NCBI GenBank assembly: GCA_049287025.1
Contig: JBAQFA010000009.1
Location: 24,802 to 88,801 of the forward strand
From: Candidatus Magasanikiibacteriota bacterium
GTDB lineage: Bacteria > Patescibacteriota > Patescibacteriia > Magasanikbacterales > UBA922
DNA length: 64,000 nt
Direction of reading: 5' to 3'
Below the pieces are notes generated by a model that did no database searches, was not told the DNA's origin, and was given only the letters and a program-made list of their open reading frames with translations. Shown piece after piece: positions 4,158 through 62,651 of the stretch. The position numbers and the translations under genes are program-made. Numbering within the stretch: the stretch's first letter is position 1; each line of letters starts with the position of its first letter.

Positions 4158-4535
4158 ATGCTAAAACCAAATAACAGACTAACAAAAATGAAAGATTTTG
4201 AGATTCTCTTTAAAGAGGGTAAGTTTGTTAATGGCACTTTATCATCATTAAAGATTTGGAAAATTGAGCCAGAAAAGTATCCTAGACGTAAATACACCCA
4301 AGATGAATTAAGAATCGGTTTTGTGGTTAGTATTAAAATTAGTAAAAAAGCCGTAGACAGAAACAGAATCAAACGGCAAATGAGAGAAGTTGTCCGTCTT
4401 TTAATTAAGGATAATAAGATAAAATCCGGTTTTCATCTGGCTTTTATTACCAAACCAGAGGTCTTGGGTAAAGAATATAAGGAAATTGAAGACGATATTA
4501 TTAAATTATTACGCCGAGCTGATATAATGTTATGA
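4158..4535 (+). CDS. rnpA: Ribonuclease P protein component
   Basis: 125 aa and basic. It sits in the conserved rpmH-rnpA-yidD order. The N-terminal L.K..RL.K..DF pattern and the IKRQMRE motif are present. Confidence 0.85.
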
Positions 4536-12363: not shown

Positions 12364-12413
12364 ACACGGATTATACGGAATTAAAGGATTATACGGAAAA
12401 TAAGAAAAATTAA

Positions 12414-12447
12414 AACACTCTGCTAAATTGGCAGGGTGTTTTTTTTG
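12414..12447 (+). terminator. Intrinsic terminator after hppA
   Basis: The stem acactctgc/gcagggtgt is followed by a T8 run. Confidence 0.7.
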
Positions 12448-12471
12448 TTTAACACTTTTTAAATCGTAAAC

Positions 12472-12500
12472 TTGACTTATCATATAAAATATAGTATAAA
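12472..12500 (+). promoter_or_regulatory. AT-rich promoter driving GC-rich cassette 1
   Basis: TTGACT (12472-12477), a 17-nt spacer, then TATAAA (12495-12500). ACTTGTTGTCTGTCG follows and resembles the CTTGTTCTGACG leader of the other cassettes. Confidence 0.45.
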
Positions 12501-12616
12501 TGTATGTCCGATAGACTTGTTGTCTGTCGTTTTGGTATATAAGGCAACTTTGCTTTGTTGTTGTGTGTGCTTGAGTGAACAACCATAATCCTTGGATGGG
12601 AGGTGAGACAGGGGAA

Positions 12617-13588
12617 ATGGCAAAGGATCTTTCGGAGAGAAAATTTCGAAGCACCGTGCGGTATGTGCGACGTCTATTGGGGGGTGGGACTGGTATTGTG
12701 ACTGCTCAACAGCTTCAGAAGGCTGGAAAACGAGCTCGCGGTCCTTTCTTTGACCCCAGAGACCATGGTCTGGTTCGTCCGTTCTTGGAGCGTGGAGCCG
12801 AAGAAGGACTCTGGGTGCTTGAGAACGGCGGTGGTCGGGCTGTCGTACCTGATGGTGTGTGGGAACAGTGGGATAGTCGTGGCGAGAGACGGCGTGAGGA
12901 ACGTCAGTCACAAGTTACGGCTCAAGCAGGAACCCGGCCAGCTTCAGTGCTGGCATCACTAGAGGAGGTCTCTATGACCGACGGTACGAAGAAGGGGGTG
13001 GGCGTATCCCCGAAAAATCCTATCTGGGTTTGGCTTCGGGCCAAGAAGGGTAGGTTGGGAGAGCTCATCGAGCTGTTCCAGGGGGTCCATGATGGTGCTC
13101 CGGTTCTCGCCAAGAAGGGTGGGGCTTTGAGTTTCCATTTTGCCCGCCCGCACCTAGTTCGGGGCCTGCAGAAGCTCGGGATGGAGCAGATCGACGATGG
13201 GTCAAAGATCCTGGCCACGGTCTTCTCCTACCTCGCCACGCCTGAGCAGGGGGTATTCGAGCGTGTGGGTTCTGGTGGGTACCCCCGCTACAAGCTCGGG
13301 CCGAAAGGGCAGAAGCTCTTGACCGAGGTCAGGAGCAGGGGCTCTGAGCCCATGCCACCGCCCGTTCCGTCCACGTCACCGACCGCTGCCCCCAGCCCGG
13401 GTGACCCGTTCGCCGAGGAGGAGGCCGCTCTCGTGGCCAAGCTCGAGGCGGTCCGTGCCAAACGCCGGCGCTTCATCGTGGTCGAGGACCTCGTGGTCAA
13501 GGCCATGAAGAAGGCCGGCATCGAGGGGACAGAGCAAGTTGAGTTCCTCAAGGCGCTCGTCAAAAAGCTCGGGGGTTCCTCCGAGTAG
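12617..13588 (+). CDS. GC-rich cassette ORF 1, unknown function (ORFan)
   Basis: This is a long ORF in a compositionally foreign block; the 60-nt line starting at 13321 contains 42 G+C. GGGAGGTGA lies upstream of the ATG at 12617, and the GTG at 12575 offered by the ORF track is unlikely. The protein has a Pro-rich linker and a C-terminal helical region. I recognise no family. Confidence 0.6.
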   Translation: MAKDLSERKFRSTVRYVRRLLGGGTGIVTAQQLQKAGKRARGPFFDPRDHGLVRPFLERGAEEGLWVLENGGGRAVVPDGVWEQWDSRGERRREERQSQVTAQAGTRPASVLASLEEVSMTDGTKKGVGVSPKNPIWVWLRAKKGRLGELIELFQGVHDGAPVLAKKGGALSFHFARPHLVRGLQKLGMEQIDDGSKILATVFSYLATPEQGVFERVGSGGYPRYKLGPKGQKLLTEVRSRGSEPMPPPVPSTSPTAAPSPGDPFAEEEAALVAKLEAVRAKRRRFIVVEDLVVKAMKKAGIEGTEQVEFLKALVKKLGGSSE

Positions 13589-13795
13589 TCAAATCTCTAG
13601 GCAGTCTTGACTGCCTACGACATCGTTCTTTCAACCTGTCCCGTTCGGGACACCAAAGTCAGGGAAGTGAGTATCACTCCACATCGGAGCGTACCTTCCC
13701 TGGCGCTCCATCAAAAGAACATCTCTAGTTAGGTGTTTTTTTGTTTAACATTGATTTTACAGATTTTAAAAAAGATTTTATTTTATAAAAATTAT

Positions 13796-14560
13796 TTATT
13801 TCAAACTGTTCCACAACATCTCCCAAACAAGACGTTGGTTATCAGCATTGGCTTGGTCTTCAATAATGACTAGGATCATACTCTCCCAAGAAACAGTCAT
13901 TACTCGATTGCCATAAATAACAGTGTGACTTTTGAATGATTTACCTTCGGGTAAAAATTTTACTTCACGTAATTCTTCTGTGGCACGTCTAGCTTCTAAA
14001 ATACCGGATTTGGATTTTTCCACAATTATTTTTGCTTTAACCCCTAATGAAATTCGTTCGTTGGTTAATTTTTTATACTCTTCTGGAAAAGTTGTTAATA
14101 GTTTTTCTGATGAACCATATACCAAATTTTCTTTTAGATTTACTTTGTGTCTAATCCTGTCTAGATAAGCATTCCATACATTTTTTCTACCCTCAAAATA
14201 TAATACTTTTGGTTTGTTGGCACCTTTGTTTTGTAAAGCCTCAAGTTCTGGTATTAGATCAGCAAAAAGTTGCTCTTTGTAACGAAGTGAATCCAAAAAT
14301 TTTTCTGGTTCCATGGCCACAAAATATCTTTTTCTGCCTTTGTTAACCACATTCATTAAGCCTTTAAGAATTAATTTTTCTATAATGTCGTATGTAGTTA
14401 CTCTATGTATGCCGGCTTTTTGAGCAATTGTCTGGACTGAAGCATGACCAAGCTCTAAGGTGGCTAAGTAAATTTCGGCCTCTTTGGCATCTAGACCAAA
14501 TTGTTGTAATTGATTAGGTAAAATCATAAAATGTTGTAGGAAAAGTTCTACATTTTTCAT
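13796..14560 (-). CDS. TrmB-family winged-helix transcriptional regulator (paralog 1)
   Basis: The N-terminal FGLDAKEAEIYLATLELGHASVQTIAQKAGIHRVTTYDIIEKLILKGL matches the TrmB wHTH pattern. The gene is low-GC. The start may be the internal Met at 14527. Confidence 0.8.
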   Translation of the reverse strand: MKNVELFLQHFMILPNQLQQFGLDAKEAEIYLATLELGHASVQTIAQKAGIHRVTTYDIIEKLILKGLMNVVNKGRKRYFVAMEPEKFLDSLRYKEQLFADLIPELEALQNKGANKPKVLYFEGRKNVWNAYLDRIRHKVNLKENLVYGSSEKLLTTFPEEYKKLTNERISLGVKAKIIVEKSKSGILEARRATEELREVKFLPEGKSFKSHTVIYGNRVMTVSWESMILVIIEDQANADNQRLVWEMLWNSLK

Positions 14561-28373: not shown

Positions 28374-29123
28374 TTATTTTATCTCTGGGCAATGATCCCA
28401 CATAAATTTAAACCAGGTTTTATAGCTAGTGGCCAGTGGACGACTAATATTTACAAAAATGGTAATATCGTCACTAATCTTTGTTATTCCGGCGCCAGTA
28501 AAAGACACAACATGATCACCAAAAATGTCTACCATTGAAGGCGTAGAATATTCTTTAGGTAGGTATTTGTAAGGTTTACCTACGGCTTTTGGTACATGAG
28601 GAGCTTGTTTTAGTACTTCAAAATCAAATAAATGTTTATATTTAATACCTCGACGATCCGCATCAACTAAAAATTTATCCAAAAAGGTATTGAGTCTTGG
28701 GTCGAACCAGGCTCCCTTGGCGCCAATACAATAAACATCTTCTTTAGTAGATAATACATCACGAAGAAAATTTTTAAATCCTTCCAGACCTTTATATATG
28801 TAGGCAGCCTCTAAAACAGGATGTTTTTGGTATTCGTGCATCAAGTGTGGCATTTCTTTTTCTAGCCTAGTACGTTTTTCATCAACCAGTTCCATTAGCT
28901 TGGCTGGTTCCACTGGTTTAAATAAAGTGTCGCCATGCCCAATAACTTGAAACACTAAACCTTTTTCAATTAAGCGATTCATTGAGTCATAAATATTCCG
29001 GCGATGAATTTTACTTTTTTTTGAAATATTAGAAACCGTAGTTTGTTTTTCTTGTAAAAGTGTTTCGTAAATTTTGGCTTCGTTTATTGACAATCCTAGT
29101 TCTGTTAAAATTTGGCTATACAT
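28374..29123 (-). CDS. TrmB-family wHTH transcriptional regulator (paralog 2)
   Basis: The N-terminus is LGLSINEAKIYETLLQEKQTTVSNISKKSKIHRRNIYDSMNRLIEKGLV. The gene is low-GC and divergent from GC-rich cassette 2. Confidence 0.8.
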   Translation of the reverse strand: MYSQILTELGLSINEAKIYETLLQEKQTTVSNISKKSKIHRRNIYDSMNRLIEKGLVFQVIGHGDTLFKPVEPAKLMELVDEKRTRLEKEMPHLMHEYQKHPVLEAAYIYKGLEGFKNFLRDVLSTKEDVYCIGAKGAWFDPRLNTFLDKFLVDADRRGIKYKHLFDFEVLKQAPHVPKAVGKPYKYLPKEYSTPSMVDIFGDHVVSFTGAGITKISDDITIFVNISRPLATSYKTWFKFMWDHCPEIK

Positions 29124-29170
29124 AGCAAAAATATATTAAAGTGGTGTGAAGCCACACCACGTGGTGGTAT

Positions 29171-29198
29171 TTGCCACTCTTTATATATTATATATAAT
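29171..29198 (+). promoter_or_regulatory. Promoter of GC-rich cassette 2
   Basis: TTGCCA (29171-29176), a 16-nt spacer, then TATAAT (29193-29198). GCCTTGTT follows and is the shared start of the leader. Confidence 0.45.
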
Positions 29199-29296
29199 GC
29201 CTTGTTACTTTGCAAGCCGCTGCTGTGCATAAAAGCTAGATGGTGAGCGGGTAATAAGGGGTTCTTTGATAAAACAATTTGAGAAGCGAGGGACAA

Positions 29297-29479
29297 ATGG
29301 AAACTGGAGAAAGGCAAGATGAAGTTACTTGTTTGAAGAAAGAGTTGGAACATGACAAAGATGAGATATATTATTTGCGTTTGGCTATCCTTAATTTGAA
29401 TAGGAAAAAGGAGTATGTCAGAATGCAAAGGATGTTCCGTGGTGGAGAAGCTGTTCTCGACATGTGGGCGCGCTATTAA
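29297..29479 (+). CDS. Small coiled-coil protein, unknown function (cassette 2, first ORF)
   Basis: 60 aa. GAGG lies 5 nt upstream of the ATG at 29297. The sequence is charged with heptad-like spacing. I recognise no family. Confidence 0.4.
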   Translation: METGERQDEVTCLKKELEHDKDEIYYLRLAILNLNRKKEYVRMQRMFRGGEAVLDMWARY

Positions 29480-29515
29480 CACGGGAGAGGGCTGAAAAAG
29501 CCTAAGGAGGACCTC

Positions 29516-30103
29516 ATGCGTACAATGTTAGTCGCGTTGCTGTCGCTGGTGCTGTTTTCAAGTATTGCTCAGGCCGAAACCTACAACACCAGGTTGCTCC
29601 TGCACGGTCACAAGACCGTCGGTGAGGGATTCGGAGTCGCGGGTTGGGTGATTGCGCCCAACATCACAAGCGTACCGAACAAGTGGGTAACCCTCGTCGG
29701 CCCGTGCTACGATGGACAGGGGTGGGGTGTAGAATTGTTGGCAGGAGCGGTTGTTTCTGGTGGCGAGAGCAAGTTTCTTGTAGATGTCAGAATAACGTTC
29801 ACTCCAAAATTCTTCGGCATCCCCTTGAACACCTGGCACAACTTCCAGTGGATTCGAACCGGAGGCTCTGGCACGGGTTACTGGTATGGACAGGTTGACT
29901 GGGTGTTGCCACTCGGACTTGGACTTCTCGGTACAGAAACCGAGAACACGTTCAACGTGAGTGGCAATGACTGGTCAGTCGCGCCTCACGTCGTGATCTC
30001 TTTCGGTGATCACTTCGCGCTAGTGTTCGCTCCACAAGCTCATTTCAATGCACGTGGCTACACTGGCACGCAAGCGTGGGTTCGTACGGTCGTGAGTCAC
30101 TAG
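29516..30103 (+). CDS. GC-rich secreted protein, unknown function (cassette 2)
   Basis: AAGGAGG lies 5 nt upstream of the ATG. The Sec signal peptide is MRTMLVALLSLVLFSSIAQA/ET. The mature part is Gly/Trp/Val-rich with an alternating, beta-like pattern. The 60-nt line starting at 29581 contains 36 G+C. Confidence 0.7.
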   Translation: MRTMLVALLSLVLFSSIAQAETYNTRLLLHGHKTVGEGFGVAGWVIAPNITSVPNKWVTLVGPCYDGQGWGVELLAGAVVSGGESKFLVDVRITFTPKFFGIPLNTWHNFQWIRTGGSGTGYWYGQVDWVLPLGLGLLGTETENTFNVSGNDWSVAPHVVISFGDHFALVFAPQAHFNARGYTGTQAWVRTVVSH

Positions 30104-32963: not shown

Positions 32964-33311
32964 ATGGCCGAAGAGCACGAGGTACGGTGTGATAACTGCG
33001 CCCACCACCACGTAGGAAGCGGGGGTTGTTTCGGCAAAGTAGAGAGCAGGTTCCCCATGTACGATTTTCATAGAGGAGTAAAATACTGCATGTGGGGGGG
33101 GACCCCCAGCCGAATTGTGACCTTTTCTAGATTGAAGGGGTGCCCGCTGGGTGTGGAGTTTGTGCCACTCCGCTGGTGTGGTACCTGTGGCAACTTGGTC
33201 CAAACGGACCAAGGGTGTGCTCACCGGTTGGAGGGTTGCGAGGACCCCAGCTACAGGTGCTGGAAGATTCACCCCGACCTCAAGGAGGGTATGAGACAAC
33301 AGTACCTCTAG
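32964..33311 (+). CDS. GC-rich Cys/His-rich protein, unknown function (cassette 4, ORF a)
   Basis: GGGAGGG lies 4 nt upstream of the ATG at 32964. 115 aa with CDNCAHHH, CGTCG and other Cys pairs that suggest metal binding. I recognise no family. Confidence 0.65.
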   Translation: MAEEHEVRCDNCAHHHVGSGGCFGKVESRFPMYDFHRGVKYCMWGGTPSRIVTFSRLKGCPLGVEFVPLRWCGTCGNLVQTDQGCAHRLEGCEDPSYRCWKIHPDLKEGMRQQYL

Positions 33312-33335
33312 ACTACCCACCTATGGGTTAAACAG

Positions 33336-33447
33336 GCGTAGGCCGACGCGTGAGCTCGGCATTCCATTTTTGTCCAAAATATTATTTTTTGCATAAAGAT
33401 GGAGGCGCTCTTTAAAAACAAACAATCCGCACTGGTGGTGTTGGTTG
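33336..33447 (+). repeat. Inter-cassette junction repeat, copy A (~112 nt)
   Basis: The 3' motif is followed by the AT hairpin ccatttttgtcc...gcataaagatgg (33364-33402). CGCTCTTTAAAAACAAACAA and CACTGGTGGTGTTGGTTG follow that. It aligns along its full length with 34176-34285. Confidence 0.8.
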
Positions 33448-33480
33448 AAGAGATATAGTTCTGACTTAACGGAGGCTAGA

Positions 33481-34149
33481 ATGGGATACGACCCAAACCA
33501 AATGGCCCAAAGGTATTTGAGGGTCGACTGGGCCGACGTGAAGGGCTATGCCGCTTACGCGGTAGAGTCCACGTTCGGGGACCAAGTACCACCACCCATA
33601 AAAAGGAGACTCGAGGTATTGGACGGTATAAGGGACAAGGAAGGTCCCGAAGCCGCCTGTCTCGAGGCAGCAAGGATCGAATGTGAATGCCAAGTCGTTC
33701 AGGAGAAAAGAACTGAACGACGGCAGTGGAGAACGGGAGACGACCCATACAAATATGGGTCTTCGTTCTCTTCGAAGTTTGTCATCATAGATTATAATGG
33801 TGAAAAAAGATTCTACATCGCTCATAATTGGCATATGCAGGCCGTTTTCGTTTTCGCCAAAATTCTGGTGGATAGAAATAAAAAAGTCGATTTTCACGTT
33901 CTGGGTGGGGGGTGGTTCCGTGCTAATCATCCCCTAACTGTTGGCGGTTTTAGCGGTGATTTTAGCTCGTTCAAAATCTCTGACTTGAGTGAGGCGTTGG
34001 GTGGGCTTGAATTCACCGACAAAGATCCCGGTGATTGGCGCACGAATTCCATGCGTGCCACCCATATTGATTGGGCTTTTATCGAAAAAGCCCGTGACTC
34101 CTCTGAGAAATACAGGGAGGTATGGAAACGGATCTTTGAGGAGGAATAA
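33481..34149 (+). CDS. Unknown-function protein (cassette 4, ORF b)
   Basis: AGTTCTGAC (33457-33465) precedes GGAGG, which lies 5 nt upstream of the ATG at 33481. The TTG at 33445 from the ORF track is rejected. 222 aa. I recognise no family. Confidence 0.6.
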   Translation: MGYDPNQMAQRYLRVDWADVKGYAAYAVESTFGDQVPPPIKRRLEVLDGIRDKEGPEAACLEAARIECECQVVQEKRTERRQWRTGDDPYKYGSSFSSKFVIIDYNGEKRFYIAHNWHMQAVFVFAKILVDRNKKVDFHVLGGGWFRANHPLTVGGFSGDFSSFKISDLSEALGGLEFTDKDPGDWRTNSMRATHIDWAFIEKARDSSEKYREVWKRIFEEE

Positions 34150-40574: not shown

Positions 40575-40753
40575 ATTTTTTTTGTAATCCCGATCCCGAC
40601 TAAGTCGGGAGAGGGATCCCTTTTTAATGCATTTTAACTTGTAATATAAAGAATTTTATTTAGTTAGATGTTTTTTGTTTTGAAAAGGGATTCTTCACTT
40701 CCTCTTCCACTTCATTTCACTCAGTGTCAGAGTCCGTTCAGAATGACAGACGG

Positions 40754-55813: not shown

Positions 55814-56224
55814 ATGATTGATAATCAAACAAAAGAGAAATTCATCGAATTAAGAGCACAAGGAAAAAGTTATAACACAATCTCTAAAGAGATTGGTGTA
55901 AGCAAACCCACACTTATTCAGTGGAGTAGAGAGTTTGTGGACGAAATTTCCAATCTTAAAGCAATAGAATTTGAAGATTTACAAGAAAAGTATTATATAC
56001 ACAAAAGAAAAAGAATAGAAATTTTTGGCACACAACTGGAAGCCATAAAGCAGGAACTTTCTTCAAGAGATCTAAAAACAATTTCAACTGAAAGGCTTTT
56101 GGATTTATTGGCTAAATTTACGACGGTATTGAAAGCAGAAGAAACAACTATAAACTTTACTACAAAAGTCAGTCCCGTTGATGATTATTTAGATCTATCA
56201 GTTGTAAAAAATTGGATTGGATAA
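55814..56224 (+). CDS. HTH-domain protein (resolvase/terminase-small-subunit-like HTH)
   Basis: FIELRAQGKSYNTISKEIGVSKPTLIQWSREF is a typical three-helix HTH. A coiled coil follows. Confidence 0.55.
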   Translation: MIDNQTKEKFIELRAQGKSYNTISKEIGVSKPTLIQWSREFVDEISNLKAIEFEDLQEKYYIHKRKRIEIFGTQLEAIKQELSSRDLKTISTERLLDLLAKFTTVLKAEETTINFTTKVSPVDDYLDLSVVKNWIG

Positions 56225-56341
56225 AATATTACCAAAACTTTACTATTTTTTGACCGAGATATTCAAAGAAAGTATATATTGCTTTTATCTCGTTTTTATG
56301 ATAATATAGCGGTACTAAACATTCAGTAGACTTATAATTTT

Positions 56342-57085
56342 ATGAGTAATAAATATAACAAAAATTTCATTGGAAAGGTTGCTTTTCGTTTAGATTTCTC
56401 CGAAAATGTTGCAATTGGTTCATTGAAAGATCTTCATGAAGAAATAAATGATGTTTTTTCAATAAAAGAAGAAAAAGAGAGTGTGACAGGGTTTGTTCAA
56501 TTAGATTTTAAGAGCGGTGAAATGAGAAATGAAACTGAAAAAATGGCTTCTTGGTTATTTAGCAATACAGAAAAAAATAAAAGAATGGAAATAAATTCGA
56601 GATTTTTGTATTTAGAATATGATAAATACAATGAAAAAACTGAACTATTTGACGATATAAAAAATGTAGTTCAAAAATTCATATCAAAATATAATATAAA
56701 AACTTTTAATCGTATTGGTTTAAGATTTATAAACGAAATAAAGTTACAAGAAAGTGAGCAACTGGATTGGACTAAATATATTGACAAAAACCTAATTGCT
56801 AATCTTATTTTTGTTAAAGATCAAAATAAAAAATTAGCTCGTGCAATGAGTGCCTTAGTTTTCAAAGAAGAAAAAGGTGATATAAATTTTAATTTTGGTA
56901 TTTGGAATAGTGAGTATCCAAACGAGGTTAACAGAAAGGAATTTGTATTAGACTATGATTGTTTTTCAAATTTAGGAATTTCTGATGATGAAGTTTTAGA
57001 ACGCACAGAGCAGTTTCATTCATATATTGAAAAACTATTTGAAGCAAGTATAACGGAAGAATTTAGAGGATTGTTAAATAAATAA
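56342..57085 (+). CDS. Hypothetical protein (possibly TIGR04255-like)
   Basis: 247 aa. The N-terminal ...KVAFRLDF and overall size recall the TIGR04255 family. This is not verifiable here. Confidence 0.45.
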   Translation: MSNKYNKNFIGKVAFRLDFSENVAIGSLKDLHEEINDVFSIKEEKESVTGFVQLDFKSGEMRNETEKMASWLFSNTEKNKRMEINSRFLYLEYDKYNEKTELFDDIKNVVQKFISKYNIKTFNRIGLRFINEIKLQESEQLDWTKYIDKNLIANLIFVKDQNKKLARAMSALVFKEEKGDINFNFGIWNSEYPNEVNRKEFVLDYDCFSNLGISDDEVLERTEQFHSYIEKLFEASITEEFRGLLNK

Positions 57086-57088
57086 AAT

Positions 57089-57289
57089 ATGAATAATAAT
57101 TACTCGCAACAGTCTGCCCAGACAGCAGGTTCAAATGACTCTGGTTATTTTGCAAAACAAAATAATTCTACAGTAACGAGTGATTATATAACTAAAACCA
57201 AGGAAACAGCTGAATTTGTAGTTGTTAATGGTTCAGGTTATTCACAAAGACAGGCAAGAATTGTGAAAAGTAAATATGTTAGAAAGTAA
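57089..57289 (+). CDS. Small hypothetical protein
   Basis: 66 aa, tightly packed between neighbours and overlapping the next ORF by 14 nt. Confidence 0.35.
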   Translation: MNNNYSQQSAQTAGSNDSGYFAKQNNSTVTSDYITKTKETAEFVVVNGSGYSQRQARIVKSKYVRK

Positions 57290-57854
57290 TATTAAATCTT
57301 TTTATAAAAAACACAGCAAGGAGCGATTTTGCCAAGGTGATATTTTGAGAGATGTAAAAGTTTCAATTGACATTCCAATCGAATGGCAACAATCAGAGGG
57401 TAATACCACAGATTATGATTTACCGTATTGTGTTATTATGACACAAGATTGTGACTTGGATAGAGATTTCGAAAGTAAAAAAGGTGAAAAACTCACAAAC
57501 AACGACAAACATTTACCGACAATTTTAGTTTGTCCAGCATATCGTGATCTTCCTTTTTATGAGGGTAAACATCTTGTAGGCTGGAAAATGCAGGAATACA
57601 AAGGCAAGGCATTAGAAAAAATACAAAAAAACGATGAAATAAACAGGTGCCACTTTCTAAAAGGTGACAGTACCTTACAAATACCAAATCTTGTAATTGA
57701 CTTCAAACATTTCTACACATTGCCAACAAGTATACTTTATGAACAATACAACGATATTTATTTAGCAACTATAAATGAATTATTCAGAGAGAGGCTATCA
57801 CAACGTTTCGCTAATTATTTATCGAGATTTGGTTTGCCAGAATTAAAATCATAG
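57276..57854 (+). CDS. Hypothetical protein with a CVIMTQDCDLDRD motif
   Basis: 192 aa. I recognise no family with confidence. Confidence 0.45.
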   Translation: MLESNIKSFYKKHSKERFCQGDILRDVKVSIDIPIEWQQSEGNTTDYDLPYCVIMTQDCDLDRDFESKKGEKLTNNDKHLPTILVCPAYRDLPFYEGKHLVGWKMQEYKGKALEKIQKNDEINRCHFLKGDSTLQIPNLVIDFKHFYTLPTSILYEQYNDIYLATINELFRERLSQRFANYLSRFGLPELKS

Positions 57855-57910
57855 ATAAAGATTTTATAAAATACGATAATATATAACCAGCTGATAAAGC
57901 TGGTTTATTA

Positions 57911-57939
57911 TTGCTAAATAAACATCAGTATGGTAAAAT
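57911..57939 (+). promoter_or_regulatory. Promoter with extended -10 driving the structured RNA
   Basis: TTGCTA (57911-57916), a 17-nt spacer, then TGgTAAAAT (-10 at 57934-57939). Confidence 0.5.
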
Positions 57940-57945
57940 CATAAT

Positions 57946-58097
57946 GCTAACCCACAACTTAATATACACAAGAATGAATGAGGTTCTCCTCATCTTTTGT
58001 CCGTTTGCGACCAGAGATGGGGTAGCAACCTTCCACAAACGGGCATTCTTGTGTTCGCAAAGTGGGTTAGCAGGTATGCTATCCCTTTTTTGTTTTT
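57946..58097 (+). ncRNA. Riboswitch-like structured RNA / sRNA (unknown class) with overlapping terminator
   Basis: P1 pairs gctaacccac (57946-57955) with gtgggttagc (58062-71). P2 pairs cacaagaatg (57967-76) with cattcttgtg (58044-53). P3 is the hairpin atgagg-ttct-cctcat (57978-93). P4 pairs ccgtttg (58001-07) with caaacgg (58036-42). The terminator gggttagc-aggtat-gctatccc plus a T-run (58064-58096) shares the 3' strand of P1. Confidence 0.55.
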
Positions 58098-58228
58098 AAT
58101 TTAATAAAAGATTACACAGTCTTTTACAATTTTACACAAAAATTGGACAAAATTGGACAAAAATCATTCAAGTTCATACACAAATTACGGGTTTCACATT
58201 AACCCGACTAATTATTAACATAGATTAT

Positions 58229-58744
58229 ATGAAAAAATGTCAGTTTTGTGCTGAAGAAGTGCAAGATGAAGCCATAGTATGTAAACACTGTGGCAAAGAA
58301 TTAAATAAGCAGGCTGTAAAAAAGAAGGAGTATAATTGGACATTTCGCAAAATTAGTTGTGCGGTTATATTAGTCCCAGTAGTCTTGATTTTTGTAATTA
58401 CCATGGCGGGCGGATGCAATAATTCTAAATCAACCCCAACAGATAGTGCATTATCAAACGTGGGCGTTGGACAGGAAGGTTTCTTACGTACGAGTGATAC
58501 TGGTGCGGATGTTTTGTTAGCTACTTCAGAAAAATCATTTGATGATTTAATTAATGCATCGGTTGCAAAAGATACAATTGGTATGGCACAAATTGTCCTT
58601 AATGGTAATGCTTTTTACATCCCTTATAACACAAAAGTATTAGTGATCGAGTCTTCTTTTGCTAAAAGAAAAGTACGTATTTTGGAAGGTGAGAAAGTAG
58701 GCGAAACTGGTTGGATACCCTATGAGTTTGTTGTTGCAAAATAA
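58229..58744 (+). CDS. Zinc-ribbon membrane protein
   Basis: It has an N-terminal CQFCAEEV...CKHCG ribbon, one TM segment and an extracytoplasmic beta-rich (SH3-like?) C-terminus. Confidence 0.55.
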   Translation: MKKCQFCAEEVQDEAIVCKHCGKELNKQAVKKKEYNWTFRKISCAVILVPVVLIFVITMAGGCNNSKSTPTDSALSNVGVGQEGFLRTSDTGADVLLATSEKSFDDLINASVAKDTIGMAQIVLNGNAFYIPYNTKVLVIESSFAKRKVRILEGEKVGETGWIPYEFVVAK

Positions 58745-58804
58745 TGGAAAACAAACAAAAAACCTGCTATATTAATAGTAGGTTTTTTTATTAAAATAAA
58801 TATT

Positions 58805-60442
58805 ATGACAACCACACAAGATTTGTACAAAATGATCGGAACTGCACAACAGCAGGAAGAAGATAAGGATGACGTTTCAAAATATCGATACGTTATTTAT
58901 GCTCGAAAATCTACAGATGATAAAGAAAAACAAATCAGATCATTAGGTGATCAAATTAAAGAATGTAAGGATTATGCTGAAAGAAATGGACTTAGATGTT
59001 TACCGAAACCAATAACGGAGTCAGAGTCTGCCAAGGAACCAGACATAAGGCCAGAGTTTAAGAAATTAATTGATGACATTAAAAAAGCTAAATATGATGG
59101 TATTTTGGCTTGGCATCCAGACCGTTTGGCCAGAAATATGAAGGATGCTGGAGAGATAATAGATCTGTTGGATAAAAAGATAGTGAAAGACCTAAAATTC
59201 GTAACATTTACGTTTGAGAACAATACAATGGGTAAAATGTTGTTAGGGATGGCTTTCGTGCTGTCTAAGCAGTATTCTGACGCTTTAAGTGATAATGTAA
59301 AACGAGGAACAAGTAGAAGTATTGAAGAAGGTAGATGGTTGAACAAAGCTAAACATGGTTATTATAAAGATCGTAATCAAATACTGCATCCAGATGGTAG
59401 ATTTTTTAATCTGATTGAGAATATTTTTAGGATGAGAATAGATAATAAAAGTTTGGATGATATAGCTGATTATTTGAATGAAAATAGATATTGTTGTGCC
59501 CCACCTTCTAAGAATGAAGCTGACCGTAGCCCATTTCAAATGACCAAACAGATCGTCTCTAAAATTGTGAGAGACCCATTTTACACTGGCATTCTTAAGT
59601 ATGGAGAAAACAAGGTTGATTTAACTGAAATTTATGACTTTACTCCTGCTGTAAGTGTGGATGATTTTCTGAAAATAAACAACTTTTCTGATATTGAAAA
59701 AGCTCTAAAATTAACTGGAAAAATTTATAAAGACAACGCAATCAAGGCAGATTTGATGAGAGGAATGATAATTTGTGGTGAATGTGATGGAAGTATGACA
59801 TCTGGAATTACTCCTAAAAAAACAAAAAATGGTAAAACTAATTATTTTTATTACAGATGTGATAACCCTGTTTGTAAAAATAAAGGTAAGTCTATAAGGG
59901 CAAAAGTAATTATTGACTTTGCCTGTCAATATTTGGAAAAAAACAAATTTACCTCTCATTCTATATATGGGCATTATATCCAAGAAATGAAAAAAGTTGT
60001 AATGGAAAAAGAGAGGTCTCTCATACAAAAAATTCGTTCATTGACGGAGACCAGAGTACACAAAAAAAATCAATTTGAAAAGACAAAAAAATCTCTTATA
60101 CAAGAGACTGACGAAGACATCAAGGGTTTTTTTAAGGAAGATTTGAAACAATTAGAAAAGGACATCAATAATTTAGAAACCGAAATAGATGAATTGAAAG
60201 ATGAGAAAGAAAGAAATAATAGCGTCACGCTGACTTACTCAGAATACCTTGAACTGTTCAATAATTTAGCTGAGCGTATTAAAAAAATAGGCGTTATGGA
60301 AGACCTAAATTTTATAATGAAAAAAATCTTCTTGAACTTTACTATAAAAGAGGGAAAAGTGGCTCTATATACACTAAACTCCCCATTCGGGGAGTTCGTG
60401 AAAGACCGTATTGTCTTGACATGTCGGGGTGAAAGGACTTGA
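58805..60442 (+). CDS. Large serine recombinase (resolvase/invertase N-domain + recombinase domain + zinc ribbon + coiled coil)
   Basis: The catalytic-Ser region is YVIYARKSTDDKEKQIRSLGDQ. WHPDRLARN is present. The Cys4 cluster is CGECDG...YYRCDNPVC. The C-terminal coiled coil is long. Confidence 0.85.
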   Translation: MTTTQDLYKMIGTAQQQEEDKDDVSKYRYVIYARKSTDDKEKQIRSLGDQIKECKDYAERNGLRCLPKPITESESAKEPDIRPEFKKLIDDIKKAKYDGILAWHPDRLARNMKDAGEIIDLLDKKIVKDLKFVTFTFENNTMGKMLLGMAFVLSKQYSDALSDNVKRGTSRSIEEGRWLNKAKHGYYKDRNQILHPDGRFFNLIENIFRMRIDNKSLDDIADYLNENRYCCAPPSKNEADRSPFQMTKQIVSKIVRDPFYTGILKYGENKVDLTEIYDFTPAVSVDDFLKINNFSDIEKALKLTGKIYKDNAIKADLMRGMIICGECDGSMTSGITPKKTKNGKTNYFYYRCDNPVCKNKGKSIRAKVIIDFACQYLEKNKFTSHSIYGHYIQEMKKVVMEKERSLIQKIRSLTETRVHKKNQFEKTKKSLIQETDEDIKGFFKEDLKQLEKDINNLETEIDELKDEKERNNSVTLTYSEYLELFNNLAERIKKIGVMEDLNFIMKKIFLNFTIKEGKVALYTLNSPFGEFVKDRIVLTCRGERT

Positions 60443-60497
60443 ACCTTCGGCCTCCTGGTCCCAAACCAGGCGCTCTAGCCAACTGAGCTACACCCCG
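60424..60497 (-). tRNA. tRNA-Pro (TGG)
   Basis: The reverse complement reads cggggtg-ta-gctcagttggctagagc-g-cctgg-ttTGGga-ccagg-...gaaggttcaagtccttt-caccccg-a. Confidence 0.9.
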
Positions 60498-60825: not shown

Positions 60826-61239
60826 ATGGAATATTTATATTTTACTTTACAGATTTTATTAGCCATAGTTTTGGGTGGAGTATTAGGTTGGCAAAGAGAA
60901 AAAATTGGTAAGCCTGCTGGTCCACGTACTTATGCTTTGGTGGCTGCTGGGTCAGCTTTGTTTACTCTTTTATCTCTTTCGGCTTTTGGCACAGTCAATA
61001 CAGTACAGGTGGCCGCACAAATTGTGACAGGTGTGGGTTTTCTTGGGGCGGGAATAATCATTCATCGCGATGGTGGAATTGTAGAGGGTCTCACTACAGC
61101 AGCTGGTTTTTGGGCAGCCGCTGCTATTGGTATGGCAGTGGGGGCTGGTTGGTTGATTCAAGCGGGGATAGCTACTTTATTATTACTAATTATTTTATCT
61201 ATTGATGATCATAAATTTTTAAGAAAGAAAAAGAGATAG
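60826..61239 (+). CDS. MgtC/SapB-family membrane protein
   Basis: 137 aa with 4-5 TM segments. LGWQREKIGKPAGPRTYALV...GVGFLGAGIII is typical of the MgtC N-domain. Confidence 0.8.
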   Translation: MEYLYFTLQILLAIVLGGVLGWQREKIGKPAGPRTYALVAAGSALFTLLSLSAFGTVNTVQVAAQIVTGVGFLGAGIIIHRDGGIVEGLTTAAGFWAAAAIGMAVGAGWLIQAGIATLLLLIILSIDDHKFLRKKKR

Positions 61240-61303
61240 ATTTTAGCTTATTGACAAAAAGTGAACTTATTGTTAAAATAAATTCACTTTTTTATTTAAA
61301 CAA

Positions 61304-61477
61304 GCGGGTATCACCCTCCTTCGTCCATCCTTCGCTAATGCTTCGGAGGACTACGGATGGGCAAGTATAACGGTTATTACCTGCCCGACATGCCTGATGG
61401 CAATCAAGGTAGGTGGGTCCGAGTTTTCTCCCGCCCCGAGGGCGGGATCCCTCTGTGGAGGGACAAACTCATGAAAG
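61304..61477 (+). pseudogene. Mosaic tRNA-Gly-like sequence: tRNA-Gly 5' two-thirds interrupted by three GC-rich insertions, no T-arm
   Basis: The segments gcgggtatca / tataacggttatta / tccgagttttc / aaactcatgaaag are collinear with tRNA-Gly 61578-61625. They are separated by structured inserts of about 51, 38 and 35 nt. Confidence 0.5.
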
Positions 61478-61501
61478 AAAATTAATTTTACAATTTAACA
61501 C

Positions 61502-61577
61502 GCGGGTATCATATATGTTCCATATATAATACTCCTCGTTCGGAAGAGCGAAAATAAATTTTCTCTCTTCACTCACT
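61502..61577 (+). repeat. Second partial copy of the tRNA-Gly 5' end (gcgggtatcatata) plus unique spacer
   Basis: The 14 nt at 61502-61515 are identical to 61578-61591, after which the sequences diverge. Confidence 0.6.
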
Positions 61578-61649
61578 GCGGGTATCATATAACGGTTATT
61601 ATCCGAGTTTTCCAAACTCGTGAAAGGAGTTCGACTCTCCTTACCCGCT
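61578..61649 (+). tRNA. tRNA-Gly (TCC)
   Basis: gcgggta-tc-atat-aacggtta-ttat-c-cgagt-ttTCCaa-actcg-tgaa-aggag-ttcgact-ctcct-tacccgc-t. A terminator hairpin follows at 61657-61690. Confidence 0.85.
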
Positions 61650-61730
61650 CATTGTCAAACTTCGCTTAAACAGCGGAGTTTTTATATTTTTATCTATATG
61701 ATATAATTGAATCAAATTAGTTTTATAAAT

Positions 61731-62006
61731 ATGAAAAAAATAATTTTACCAGTTTTTATCGTTATAATAATGCTTTCAGCAGTGGTAATATTAAACATTC
61801 ACGTAATTAAATATAATCGACACTTAGTTCCGGAACCACTATATAAATATTTTACAGATAGTAAACTTCGTGTAGAATATAAAAAATATAAAATTTGTGA
61901 TTCATATACCAGTAAAGAAATTTGCACCTCTCAGCCGAGTTGTACATGGGCCAATTTTTGGTTTGATGGAATGGAAAAAGCAGAAGAATATTGTTCGACC
62001 AAATAG
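61731..62006 (+). CDS. Small secreted/membrane-anchored Cys-containing protein
   Basis: It has an N-terminal hydrophobic anchor (MKKIILPVFIVIIMLSAVVIL) and 4 Cys in the C-terminal half. I chose the start ATG at 61731. Confidence 0.45.
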   Translation: MKKIILPVFIVIIMLSAVVILNIHVIKYNRHLVPEPLYKYFTDSKLRVEYKKYKICDSYTSKEICTSQPSCTWANFWFDGMEKAEEYCSTK

Positions 62007-62117
62007 ATTAAGTAACCATCATATAGGTTCTAACATCTTCTACCAAGGAACTTAAAAACAAAACAGGGTATTACTCCTGTTTTGTTGATTTTATAAATAA
62101 CTAAACCAATTATTTTT

Positions 62118-62651
62118 TTAAGCTGAGACAAAGAACACATCTTCATTTTTTTCAATTGTTTTTTCACAAACCAATGTTAGTGAATCAATTACTTTATCTA
62201 GGTCATTTAAGAATGTTTTATCCAGATTATTTAATAATTCTTTTAGTTTTTTTATTTCTTCTACTGTCCAATAACCAACCGTTGTTTCATATTGATCACC
62301 CATTTGGTGAAAGCGTTCGCCATCAGTCACGCGTCGGCCTTCTGTAATGTAACTTAGTAAATCAGTTAATTCTTGATCCACGTTTGGGTTAGAAATCAAT
62401 TTTTCTATTAGATCCCAATAAGCTTGGTTAGTCCAATTATCATCAATATTTTCATGATCTATAAATTCCAATAAATACGCTGGATAATAATCAATTCCGT
62501 CAATATTGCCCTCATCAATAATTTGGTCAATAAATTGACTACCTTCTGGATCATCGCCAATTAGTTTGTCCTTTACATCTTCTCTTTTTGAACCAATTAA
62601 AGATTTTAAATCATCTAATTTGAGAGAATAGAAACTAACGCTTGAGCTCAT
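62118..62651 (-). CDS. Acidic hypothetical protein
   Basis: 177 aa and Asp/Glu-rich. It may be DUF1877-like; I cannot recognise it with confidence. Confidence 0.45.
   Translation of the reverse strand: MSSSVSFYSLKLDDLKSLIGSKREDVKDKLIGDDPEGSQFIDQIIDEGNIDGIDYYPAYLLEFIDHENIDDNWTNQAYWDLIEKLISNPNVDQELTDLLSYITEGRRVTDGERFHQMGDQYETTVGYWTVEEIKKLKELLNNLDKTFLNDLDKVIDSLTLVCEKTIEKNEDVFFVSA

Follow-up and report, generated by a model that had tools for sequence, protein, structure and literature searches.

The 274 nt that precede the gene for tRNA-Gly(UCC) on this Candidatus Magasanikiibacteriota contig are made up of two copies, both truncated, of the 5′ part of that tRNA and, judged by their sequence, are not a second tRNA gene. 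We propose, with a confidence slightly above even, that these truncated duplicates in the tRNA's own leader have been colonised by small palindromic insertion modules, and that they are removed together with the leader by RNase P. The whole stretch of DNA that was analysed, 64 kb in length, is hereafter called the window; the features of the locus are listed in Table 1.

Organization of the tRNA-Gly(UCC) locus

The sequence GCGGGTATCA is present exactly three times in the 64-kb window, at 61304, 61502 and 61578, compared to a mean of 0.07 in shuffled sequences, none of which reached a count of three (0/100), in agreement with the threefold repeat described in the earlier sequence-only reading. 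ARAGORN and Rfam agree that the third copy alone is a complete cloverleaf, as that reading had also stated. This tRNA has a U73 discriminator of the bacterial type and its CCA is not encoded, whereas copy 1 stops at tRNA nt 49 and copy 2 at nt 14, neither of them completing a cloverleaf. A check for an intron-bearing tRNA by intron-mode ARAGORN and Rfam, as the same reading had recommended, called only 61578-61650. On copy 1 itself the intron mode of ARAGORN made no call, and the intron and low-threshold modes together produced only spurious calls below the 80% threshold. Rfam searches of the region, at the gathering score and at E ≤ 10, found nothing besides the tRNA and no intron match, and those of the leaders of lineages L013, L021 and L022 found the tRNA only, so that the leader corresponds to no Rfam family. 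An assembly artefact is ruled out, since three independent assemblies of this organism (L010-L012) carry exactly the same sequence here. MgtC of the window is 100% identical to that of a Candidatus Magasanikiibacteriota MAG, in line with the CPR origin supposed in the earlier reading.

A single promoter and a single terminator enclose copy 1, copy 2 and the tRNA. The promoter sits immediately 3′ of the mgtC stop codon, and a TTGACA..TAAAAT/TACAAT box is likewise found 3′ of mgtC in L004, L013, L014, L017, L020, L025, L028 and L036; from its sequence it is the probable start of a transcript comprising the leader and tRNA-Gly. The inverted repeat I1 that overlaps it is probably the terminator of mgtC, and its stem has changed in a compensatory manner in L013 and L014 (GTGAA/TTCAC to CGAA/TTCG). 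A hairpin homologous to the downstream terminator lies 3′ of the tRNA in L013, and in L014 it follows a 155-nt insert. An internal promoter at TACAAT (61487-61492) was considered and rejected; it has no acceptable -35 box and is absent from the list of the promoter scan. The fold of the 352-nt region has a z-score of -6, and GC-rich stems are retained in genomes with a GC content of ~35%. The gene rnpA is present within the window.

Table 1. Features of the tRNA-Gly(UCC) locus, in coordinates of the window.
Feature	Position	Strand	Basis or remark
Sigma-70-type promoter, TTGACA, 17 nt, TAAAAT, with TG	61251..61279	+	11/12 in consensus scan
16-bp inverted repeat I1 followed by a T-run, overlapping the promoter	61256..61292	+	94% complementary
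Copy 1, mosaic truncated tRNA-Gly(UCC), nt 1-49	61304..61477	+	homologues at the same locus in L013, L020 and L022
Insert 1, 52 nt, GC-rich, between tRNA A10 and T11	61314..61365	+	core TTCGCTAATGCTTCGG...GGGCAAG
Insert 2, 38 nt, GC-rich hairpin CCUGCC..GGUAGG, between tRNA A24 and T25	61380..61417	+	
Double-hairpin module (insert 3), 35 nt, between C35 and C36 of the anticodon	61429..61463	+	UCCCGCCC-CGA-GGGCGGGA, then UCCCUC-UGUG-GAGGGA
AT-rich spacer with TTTTACAATTTAACAC immediately 5′ of the next GCGGG	61478..61501	+	
Copy 2, 76-nt leader unit	61502..61577	+	covariance model R1, 100.6 bits
tRNA-Gly(UCC), intact	61578..61650	+	ARAGORN; Rfam RF00005, 53.5 bits
Intrinsic terminator, 10-bp stem followed by a T-run	61657..61690	+	sequence scan; also delimited as 61657-61681

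Copy 1, a mosaic fragment of the tRNA

Copy 1 reproduces the tRNA in four exact blocks that keep the order of the tRNA, namely nt 1-10 (61304-61313), nt 11-24 (61366-61379), nt 25-35 (61418-61428) and nt 36-42 (61464-61470), the last of which extends to nt 49 with one mismatch. Altogether 48 of the 49 tRNA-like positions agree with the tRNA in sequence and order, and the 42-nt collinear chain was reached neither in shuffled sequences (0/2000) nor in other windows of the same sequence (0/2528), which bears out the claim that this copy is collinear with the tRNA through the anticodon stem. The three inserts that had been described were measured at 52, 38 and 35 nt, the last of which forms two hairpins in the anticodon loop. 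The absence of a T-arm was likewise confirmed, and the 3′ acceptor strand is missing as well, TCTCCTTACCCGCT being found only once in the window. Collinear with the tRNA, highly identical to it, located on the same strand at the same locus and deprived of essential parts, copy 1 has several characteristics of a truncated tandem duplicate, and L013, L020 and L022 share this architecture.

The core motif of insert 1 also occurs at positions 689-704 of L013 and in the spacer between tRNA-Pro and tRNA-Phe of L004-L009. In the centroid fold, GGGCA (61358-61362) pairs with TGCCC (61382-61386) across the D-arm piece. No homologue of insert 2 was found among the compared loci, both inserts 1 and 2 are missing from L020 and L022, and BLAST of inserts 1-3 and the leader unit against the window returned no further copies. 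The GC-rich region of a mobile element in L004 was rejected as the origin of inserts 1 and 2, with which it has just short, non-significant motifs in common. A 42-residue ORF (61357-61485), preceded by GGAGG 7 nt upstream, was also rejected as a gene; it spans tRNA pieces and the module, and its start region is absent from the homologous leaders of L013, L020 and L022.

The AT-rich spacer behind copy 1 is identical at 15 of 16 nt to the spacer 5′ of the tRNA in L013, and the motif TTTTACAATTwAACAC is conserved. The sequences upstream of copies 1 and 2 agree at 76% over 38 nt (repeat D1), a stretch that is AT-rich and includes 10 shared tRNA bases, and in L020 and L022 the sequences preceding the upstream and downstream copies have no clear similarity. 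Given the weak similarity between the spacer after copy 1 and the sequence that precedes this copy, a simple tandem duplication is plausible but unproven. The tRNA pieces of copy 1 match the neighbouring tRNA even where the alleles differ between lineages (35/35 and 14/14 in L020, 35/35 in L022 and 41/41 in L013).

Copy 2, a structured unit built from the 5′ end of the tRNA

Copy 2 has 14 nt in common with the tRNA (GCGGGTATCATATA, 61502-61515), which are tRNA nt 1-14; they are followed by their complement, forming hairpin H1, then by the linker UCCUCGUUCG, hairpin H2 (GAAGAGcGAAAAU..AUUUUCuCUCUUC) and ACUCACU. Homologous units exist in L014 (88% identical, two copies), L023 (two copies), L022 and L021. 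In hairpin H2, 5 of the 11 pairs have undergone compensatory change, and over the entire unit 6 pairs are altered on both sides and 96.9% of the cells are paired, a score reached by none of 500 shuffles. In the alignment of the double-hairpin module, 94.7% of the cells are paired and 5 pairs are altered on both sides. Compensatory pairs of the kind found in structured RNAs are thus present in both, but they come from 6 sequences of the unit and 9 of the module, and since these are few and related, the covariation statistics are weak. A candidate switch pairing of the unit, CUCCUC/GAAGAG, was dropped, as it is not conserved in L022 or L023.

The double-hairpin module at other genomic sites

The module folds into the hairpins CCCGCCC/GGGCGGG and UCCCUC/GAGGGA atop the anticodon stem, giving a plain three-way junction, and follows the conserved pattern UCCC..GGGA plus UCCC..GGGA. 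It is found in tRNA-Gly copies of six lineages (the window, L013, L020, L021, L022 and L023) and, beyond the tRNA, in the RNase R gene (L019, L024, P0122 and P0137) and at an intergenic site (L018). In RNase R genes of Zambryskibacteria the module adds exactly 42 nt in frame and has duplicated no target sequence, the empty site reading ATT TTG GAA AGA in L046 and the filled site ATT TTG[42 nt]GAA AAA in L024 and L019. On the opposite strand this site is TTTC^CAAA, an 8-mer identical to the anticodon-loop DNA of tRNA-Gly(UCC). The module is missing from P0121 (86% identical) and from more than 100 other RNase R homologues, and the module-bearing RNase R carries further palindromic in-frame inserts. 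In the manner of an insertion element, the module occupies unrelated genomic sites and has a pair of filled and empty sites with defined boundaries, and we infer that it is mobile.

The metagenome pattern that yielded the non-tRNA copies of the module had the fixed flanks TTTTC and CAAA, and the preference for TTTC^CAAA consequently derives mainly from the single RNase R empty site. The window contains one copy of the module, in addition to a related single hairpin at 40585-40620; with one copy per locus and none elsewhere in the 64 kb, the high copy number of a mobile element is not shown. No transposase domain, whether of a Y1 transposase or of a RAYT, was present in the 20 window ORFs scanned, which are a part of all its ORFs.

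Searches with covariance models of the leader unit and the module found nothing new, and a scan of viral contigs with the mosaic pattern gave no match. A flank-free scan of viral sequences for the double hairpin returned nine loci, five of which were inspected and proved to be fragments of GC-rich tailed phages; their double hairpins lie after the portal gene, an unrelated context, and were set aside.

The same locus in relatives

The site at which mgtC is followed by tRNA-Gly varies among relatives. The leader modules are absent in 6 of the 13 sampled syntenic lineages that keep mgtC and tRNA-Gly (L004, L017, L025, L028, L034 and L036), including the closest relative L004, in which MgtC is 96% identical. 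At this site the window, L013, L014, L020, L021, L022 and L023 have modules that differ in number and order; for instance, the order is mosaic-unit-tRNA in the window and unit-mosaic-tRNA in L022. The modules were parsed by hand, as MAFFT alignment of whole leaders does not handle their modular order. In 6/6 lineages with an interrupted copy (the window, L013, L020, L021, L022 and L023), an intact tRNA-Gly(UCC) adjoins it. It had been argued beforehand that the upstream copies would be simple decay products if they were untranscribed and were absent or variable in close relatives. They are indeed absent in the closest relative; however, homologous copies are found in more distant syntenic Magasanikbacteria, so that simple decay does not account for them. 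A scan with the 5′ half of the tRNA found three Patescibacteria species that share the tRNA, without synteny and without upstream copies, and which therefore carry no information on this locus.

A comparable case exists at another tRNA: the tRNA-Met of L017 is preceded by a degenerate partial copy of itself with a UCCCGAC..GUCGGGA hairpin, which is absent in the related L025.

Comparison with known small palindromic elements

A literature search on palindromic and miniature elements in CPR/Patescibacteria found nothing relevant, and the module was compared to elements of other bacteria. Rickettsia palindromic elements (RPE) are ~100-150 bp in length, known only from Rickettsia and present in many copies per genome. 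They lie in frame inside protein genes and also in tmRNA and RNase P RNA, and are small palindromes of a reduced, AT-rich genome that appear to be tolerated rather than useful (PMC2229807). The module resembles them in being in frame in RNase R and also within tRNA-Gly copies. It differs in its size of 35-45 nt, in its two adjacent hairpins, in sharing no sequence with RPE, and in occurring once per locus at the specific target TTTC^CAAA.

Elements of the IS200/IS605 family and PATEs insert beside a specific 4-5-nt sequence without target duplication and have a hairpin at each end. The precise 42-nt insertion of the module after TTTC, without duplication, is similar. However, the known miniature derivatives of IS200/IS605 are at least ~100 nt long and have spacers that separate the hairpins from the cleavage sites, no Y1 transposase was seen among the window ORFs scanned, and the mobility of the module is putative. 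The short GC-rich imperfect palindromes known as REP, BIME and REPIN, which are often paired and able to stabilise transcripts, are also similar to the module. In contrast to the module, which lies inside genes in low copy with no RAYT seen, they are extragenic, high-copy and RAYT-linked.

Proposed origin of the leader and alternative explanations

In the explanation that we favour, copy 1 would be a partial duplicate of tRNA nt 1-49 into which small GC-rich palindromic sequences were inserted, and the 35-nt double hairpin would represent a family that inserts at TTTC^CAAA without target duplication. Since the anticodon would not survive an insertion into the working gene, the module would be expected in spare partial copies only. 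The inserts split the direct repeat into short stretches and may thereby have shielded the duplication from recombinational deletion. The whole array would probably be transcribed with the tRNA from the promoter after mgtC, RNase P would then cleave the leader off at G+1 of the real tRNA, and the leader RNA would presumably have no function. The interrupted 3′ half of a different allele, which follows the intact tRNA in L021 and L023, is not predicted by this simple scenario.

Alternatively, the leader might be a functional structured RNA in which a tRNA mimic or a processing platform is built by the hairpins together with the tRNA-like pieces, a reading that we consider possible but rather unlikely. 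It might act in cis on the folding or the RNase P processing of pre-tRNA-Gly, or in trans if the leader is cut at each GCGGG into small RNAs, and the acceptor-stem-like hairpin that opens each unit could be a minihelix substrate of RNase P. It would account for the well-paired unit and module with their compensatory changes, the GC-rich stems, the conserved spacer, the low z-score of the fold, and the enclosure of everything by one promoter and one terminator. The identity of the copy-1 pieces to the neighbouring tRNA, with whose allele they co-vary, and the compensatory changes in the hairpins could equally be the outcome of selection on a functional RNA. To this extent the earlier suggestion of a tRNA-mimic regulatory RNA keeps some probability, the hairpins being conserved with compensatory changes. 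Nevertheless, the leader modules are absent from nearly half of the sampled lineages (6/13), their number and order vary, L020 and L022 do not share inserts 1 and 2, and DNA palindromes may stay symmetric without any function at the RNA level. Moreover, as the module also lies within a protein-coding gene, RNase R, a leader function would make no sense there.

A further reading, which appears doubtful, is that the double hairpin is a new ultra-small (35-45 nt) site-specific mobile element and that the truncated copies are its retained landing pads or are tRNA mimics. The module would enter the loop of a short T-run/A-run hairpin, TTTC^CAAA, without target duplication, and its prime natural target would be the anticodon loop of tRNA-Gly(UCC) at position 35/36, making it a DNA-level counterpart of the group I introns that Patescibacteria have at the same position. 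Occupied copies would be kept, identical to the real gene, to divert or block a lethal insertion into the essential tRNA; as an alternative, the transcripts of the truncated copies might act as tRNA mimics.

It is more improbable still that the repeats are attachment-site scars of integrative elements at tRNA-Gly, of the decayed CIME type. Such elements would have come and gone, or accumulated, and each would have left behind a remnant and a direct repeat of the tRNA end. The tRNA-Gly locus is a synteny breakpoint at which the downstream genes differ between the window and L004, and L002 and L014 have direct repeats of the 3′ end of the tRNA on its downstream side. A large serine recombinase is encoded 1.2 kb upstream, adjoining tRNA-Pro, in both the window and L004, and the intact tRNA of L021 and L023 followed by the displaced 3′ half of another allele would also fit. 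As in attachment-site copies of tRNA genes, an intact tRNA is found near a direct repeat of a part of itself at a hotspot of rearrangement. However, classical scars repeat the 3′ part of the tRNA and flank an integrase-bearing element, whereas in the window the 5′ parts are repeated, over 76-274 nt, with no repeat of the 3′ end. There is no recombinase ORF between the repeats, the serine recombinase gene at 58805-60442 lying beyond mgtC and three other tRNAs, and the filler between them is a conserved, structured family inherited at the locus and not mixed remnants of an element. Serine recombinases are not known to require or generate repeats of 10-49 nt, and since copy 1 consists of four collinear tRNA pieces, a single crossover would be insufficient to produce it. 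The proposal of classical integration and excision scars is therefore not upheld, while insertion at the DNA level is a real part of the history of the locus.

Finally, the reading of copy 1 as an intron-containing or split gene that would give a second tRNA-Gly by splicing or joining is close to refuted: its inserts do lie at discrete positions (10/11, 24/25 and 35/36) and each is a hairpin, but the copy has no T-arm or 3′ acceptor strand, an intact tRNA adjoins it in every case, and the module is also in frame inside a protein-coding gene. A parallel in position is provided by the group I introns at tRNA 35/36 of Patescibacteria, which interrupt complete tRNA-Asn, tRNA-Asp and tRNA-Tyr and are self-splicing; they have a full P1-P9 catalytic core of about 200 nt or more, of the RF00028 type, and follow an exon whose last base is U, while their own last base is G (Nakagawa et al. 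2026, PMC13011429). The module shares with them the phylum and the unusual place in the anticodon loop, but it is a 35-nt double hairpin that begins after C35 and ends in A, has no Rfam intron match or ARAGORN intron call, and sits in a truncated copy beside an intact gene. Similarly, several short structured inserts interrupt the tRNA sequence in archaeal multi-intron and split tRNAs, but those have complete exons, a bulge-helix-bulge and a splicing endonuclease, whereas here the tRNA is bacterial (U73), no 3′ exon or half exists in the window, and the junction is a plain three-way junction with no bulge-helix-bulge. Of the proposed intron- or insertion-bearing or split tRNA, the insertion-bearing part thus stands, and the intron and split parts do not (no 3′ exon, an intact tRNA in 6/6, no group I signature).

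Implications

Although the genomes of CPR bacteria are tiny, introns and insertions are tolerated in their essential RNA genes, and this locus adds a further layer: very short GC-rich palindromes that lie precisely in the anticodon-loop sequence of a tRNA and in frame in the gene of an essential ribonuclease, together with a family of structured leader units derived from the 5′ end of the tRNA itself. Should the module prove to be mobile, it would be among the smallest site-specific insertion elements described, and would account for unexpected additional peptides in CPR proteins as well as for broken tRNA copies that mislead annotation. A functional leader would instead represent a new tRNA-mimic RNA joined to a tRNA gene. 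Either way, the locus provides concrete sequence patterns that can be searched for across CPR genomes.

Overall structure of the tRNA-Gly(UCC) array

The array belongs to Candidatus Magasanikiibacteriota (CPR/Patescibacteria), with an upstream MgtC protein that matches one in a MAG of this group at 100% identity, and the same DNA was found in three independent assemblies (L010-L012, 301/301 nt). ARAGORN and Rfam revealed a single tRNA in the region, tRNA-Gly(UCC), and GCGGGTATCA occurs three times in 64 kb, compared to 0.07 expected. Copy 1, the first of two partial copies in the tRNA leader, consists of four exact blocks ordered as tRNA nt 1-10, 11-24, 25-35 and 36-42, the last of which extends to nt 49 with one mismatch, separated by three inserts. 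The collinearity claimed in the sequence-only reading is confirmed, as this chain was equalled by 0/2000 shuffles and 0/2528 other windows of the same sequence. Copy 1 lacks the T-arm and the 3′ acceptor strand and was not called by ARAGORN in intron mode, and the tRNA likeness of copy 2 is confined to its first 14 nt. With these ordered blocks, inserts and one called tRNA, the earlier observation of two partial copies, the first insert-split and without a T-arm, holds in every detail.

Positions of the array, its surroundings and related sites in other contigs
Feature	Contig	Position	Detail
RNase P protein gene	window	4158-4535	
GC-rich islands	window	12000-14000, 29000-30000, 33000-34000	GC 0.46-0.53 vs ~0.35; long overlapping ORFs, both strands
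ORF in GC-rich island	window	12575-13588	no Pfam match
Intergenic hairpin	window	40585-40620	TCCC-GA-TCCCGAC-TAA-GTCGGGA-GA-GGGA, then TCCC and T-run
Probable mobile element	window	55814-60442	between Na+/H+ exchanger gene and tRNA-Pro/Phe/Ala cluster
tRNA-Pro	window	60423-60497	
mgtC	window	60826-61239	
Promoter	window	61251-61279	TTGACA, 17 nt, TAAAAT, with TG
Copy 1	window	61304-61477	
Insert 1	window		52 nt, between A10 and T11 of copy 1
Insert 2	window		38 nt, between A24 and T25 of copy 1
Insert 3 (double hairpin)	window		35 nt, between C35 and C36 of copy 1
42-aa ORF	window	61357-61485	GGAGG 7 nt before ATG
Copy 2	window	61502-61577	
tRNA-Gly(UCC)	window	61578-61650	
Intrinsic terminator	window	61657-61681	
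Synteny break	window	61651-62651	
Synteny break	L004	5908-7101	
Possible module relative	L004	3318-3365	
tRNA 3′-end repeats	L014	3735-3895	
tRNA-Met self-copy	L017	2545-2626	
Long palindromes	L024	751-825, 1240-1317	-45 and -35 kcal/mol
GIY-YIG ORF	L028	3200-3600	

A near-consensus promoter lies immediately 3′ of the mgtC stop codon, and an intrinsic terminator 3′ of tRNA-Gly. In every relative examined, mgtC is followed by this promoter box; where leader copies are missing, the tRNA begins ~24-30 nt past the -10 box, a position filled by copy 1 in the window. Thus, the array most likely forms the transcribed 5′ leader of pre-tRNA-Gly. The RNase P protein is encoded in the genome, so that a cut at G+1 of the real tRNA would free this leader. 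In addition, a 42-aa ORF (MGKYNGYYLPDMPDGNQGRWVRVFSRPEGGIPLWRDKLMKEN) spans the D-arm piece, insert 2 and the double hairpin; it is probably not a gene, since its start region is not kept in homologous leaders.

The same locus in relatives

MgtC homologues and their contigs, together with one pattern scan of metagenomes, provided 13 distinct lineages in which the tRNA-Gly(UCC) locus is present, mostly downstream of mgtC. Leader copies are missing from L004, L017, L025, L028, L034 and L036; in L004 (MgtC 96% identical) mgtC and the tRNA are 113 nt apart. Modules are found in the window, L013, L014 and L020-L023. In L013 (MgtC 80% identical), a shortened insert 1 is followed by a partial copy with 20 nt inserted in its D-loop and with the double hairpin at 35/36, and then by the tRNA. 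The partial copy of L020 and L022 is identical to nt 1 to ~49 of their own tRNA, with the double hairpin at 35/36 as sole interruption. L014 has two copy-2-type units, as do L021 and L023, where the tRNA follows and then GTTTTC, the double hairpin and the entire 3′ half of another tRNA-Gly allele, which in L023 is the window's own allele. The order varies between the window (insert-split copy, unit, tRNA) and L022 (unit, insert-split copy, tRNA), and the intact tRNA-Gly(UCC) adjoins the interrupted copy in 6/6 lineages having one.

Copy 2 belongs to a 76-nt family that L014, L021, L022 and L023 also carry at this locus, with 71-88% identity. Each unit consists of hairpin H1 (tRNA nt 1-14 and their complement), a linker, a long hairpin H2 and ACUCACU before the next GCGGG. 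H2 shows compensatory changes in 5/11 pairs, and 96.9% of all cells in the unit pair; its score was reached by no shuffle. The unit covariance model found no further copies in the window or 18 loci.

Synteny between the window and L004 breaks directly after tRNA-Gly, which is followed in the window by a 99-aa hypothetical ORF and a DUF7691 gene, and in L004 by radical-SAM and S8 peptidase genes. At this site, more distant relatives carry tRNA-Met and tRNA-Gly(GCC), a pair that the window lacks here. Direct repeats of the tRNA-Gly(UCC) 3′ end (TCTCCTTACCCGCTC) occur downstream of the gene in L014 and L002 (~196 nt after the tRNA), those of L014 flanking 155 nt with an inverted T-arm fragment and a GUGAAAAC/GUUUUCAC hairpin; they look like attachment-type repeats or 3′-side counterparts of the leader units. 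The probable mobile element upstream of the array includes a gene for a 545-aa large serine recombinase, which overlaps tRNA-Pro by 20 nt at its 3′ end, as well as hypothetical ORFs and an HTH transposase-like ORF. This position is taken in the closely related L004 by another serine recombinase (487 aa) with other cargo (DUF3800, HTH), and is vacant in L025 and L028.

The double-hairpin module

Insert 3 and the anticodon stem fold as a three-way junction, in which each hairpin starts with UCCC and ends with GGGA. Across nine sequences of this module, 94.7% of cells pair and five pairs changed on both sides, for example CCCGC/GCGGG in most lineages versus CCCUC/GAGGG in the window. The metagenome scan also located it away from any tRNA, in an intergenic region of L018 and, on the opposite strand, within the RNase R gene of L019 and L024 (Zambryskibacteria). 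Among 120 RNase R homologues, the module peptide SRCLxIGIPTxxSG is present only in P0122 and P0137, besides L019 and L024 themselves, and is absent from the 86% identical P0121. Compared to the empty site of L046 (CAC AGA ATT TTG / GAA AGA TAT), the filled sites of L024 and L019 have the same flanks with exactly 42 nt added in frame, and no bases duplicated or lost. The RNase R site reads TCTTTC^CAAAAT on the other strand and the tRNA site GTTTTC^CAAACT, giving a common target TTTC^CAAA, to be read with caution as the scan pattern itself fixed the flanks TTTTC and CAAA. These sequence comparisons support the view of the module as inserted DNA with a site preference.

Two more long palindromic inserts in the same RNase R, likewise in frame, suggest that insertions of this kind occur commonly in these lineages. 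In L024 these palindromes are near-perfect, and their sites vary also in the homologue P0123; on the opposite strand of L024, GC-rich stretches also seem to interrupt an SMC-like gene. The intergenic hairpin of the window shares its UCCC/GGGA and GGGAUCCC building blocks with the module. Upstream of a serine recombinase gene, L004 contains CTTTTC, TGTCGGCCAGACGGCGGTTCGTG, TCCCGACCGAGTCGGGA and CAAAC in succession, a weak hit of covariance model R2 (15.4 bits) that may be a degenerate module relative with the same flanks. GC-rich tailed-phage fragments in IMG/VR (L039-L041, L043 and L045, with terminase, portal and capsid) carry TCCCGACTGAAGTCGGGA/TCCCGATCGTTGTCGGGA at the portal gene end, where the double-hairpin shape is the same but flanks and hosts differ.

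Inserts 1 and 2 and a comparable tRNA-Met

The core of insert 1 (TTCGCTAAWGCTWCG...GGGCAAG) was found again in L013 and, at another place, in the tRNA-Pro/tRNA-Phe spacer of L004-L009; insert 2 has no homologue among the loci compared. The arrangement in L013 suggests that copy 1 arose by fusion of two earlier partial copies, one composed of GCGG, insert 1 and GTATA and the other starting from the D-arm, which would imply a history including duplication, insertion and deletion.

A comparable case is the tRNA-Met of L017, preceded by a degenerate partial self-copy with the D-arm replaced by a UCCCGAC-UUA-GUCGGGA hairpin. It runs from CGCGGGATAG through the hairpin TCCCGACTTAGTCGGGA and a diverged anticodon arm to a spacer ending TTTACAAT, and is missing from the relative L025. 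In L025, tRNA-Met and tRNA-Gly(GCC) are ~25 nt apart, whereas in L028 a 79-aa GIY-YIG ORF with flanking GC-rich inverted repeats (GGCTACG...CGTAGCC) is inserted between them, and GCGG with a GC-rich piece lies immediately 5′ of tRNA-Gly(GCC).

Origin of the array

The best-supported explanation is that truncated duplicates of the tRNA 5′ part, residing in its own leader, were colonised by insertion modules that are small, palindromic and GC-rich. A working gene would be destroyed by an insertion at 35/36, which only spare copies could bear. Moreover, the inserts split the direct repeat into 10-35 nt pieces, so that recombination should remove the duplication more slowly, and this would explain why all partial copies found without bias (window, L013 and L020; 3/3) are occupied. 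Recombination between GCGGGTATCA repeats, with loss of the whole array, would give the L004 state.

Three features are not well explained by truncated duplicates: the tRNA-like pieces match the neighbouring tRNA exactly even where alleles differ between lineages, an identity that needs gene conversion or selection; the GC-rich stems are kept in a ~35% GC genome; and L021/L023 combine two different alleles. Because of these features, a functional leader RNA stays a serious rival, albeit an unlikely one. Scars of classical integrases fit poorly and appear improbable, since the repeats are of the tRNA 5′ part and enclose no recombinase ORF. A spliced or split tRNA fits poorly as well and is barely credible: group I introns have been reported at position 35/36 in Patescibacteria tRNAs (Nakagawa et al. 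2026, PMC13011429), sharing position and phylum with the module, but the module lacks all features that define a group I intron, and copy 1 has the missing parts and negative intron-mode result described.

Regarding the colonising module of the preferred explanation, its insertion geometry is nearest to IS200/IS605-type elements. These have a specific short target and terminal hairpins, and cause no target duplication. In behaviour it is nearest to the Rickettsia palindromic elements (PMC2229807), which reside within the genes for tmRNA and RNase P RNA as well as, in frame, within protein-coding genes. Both kinds of element are far larger than the module, which has no known transposase. The literature searches yielded no account of such elements in CPR. 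Altogether, the array is noteworthy for its conserved leader units and for a target lying precisely in the anticodon loop, with the module as a candidate mobile element only.
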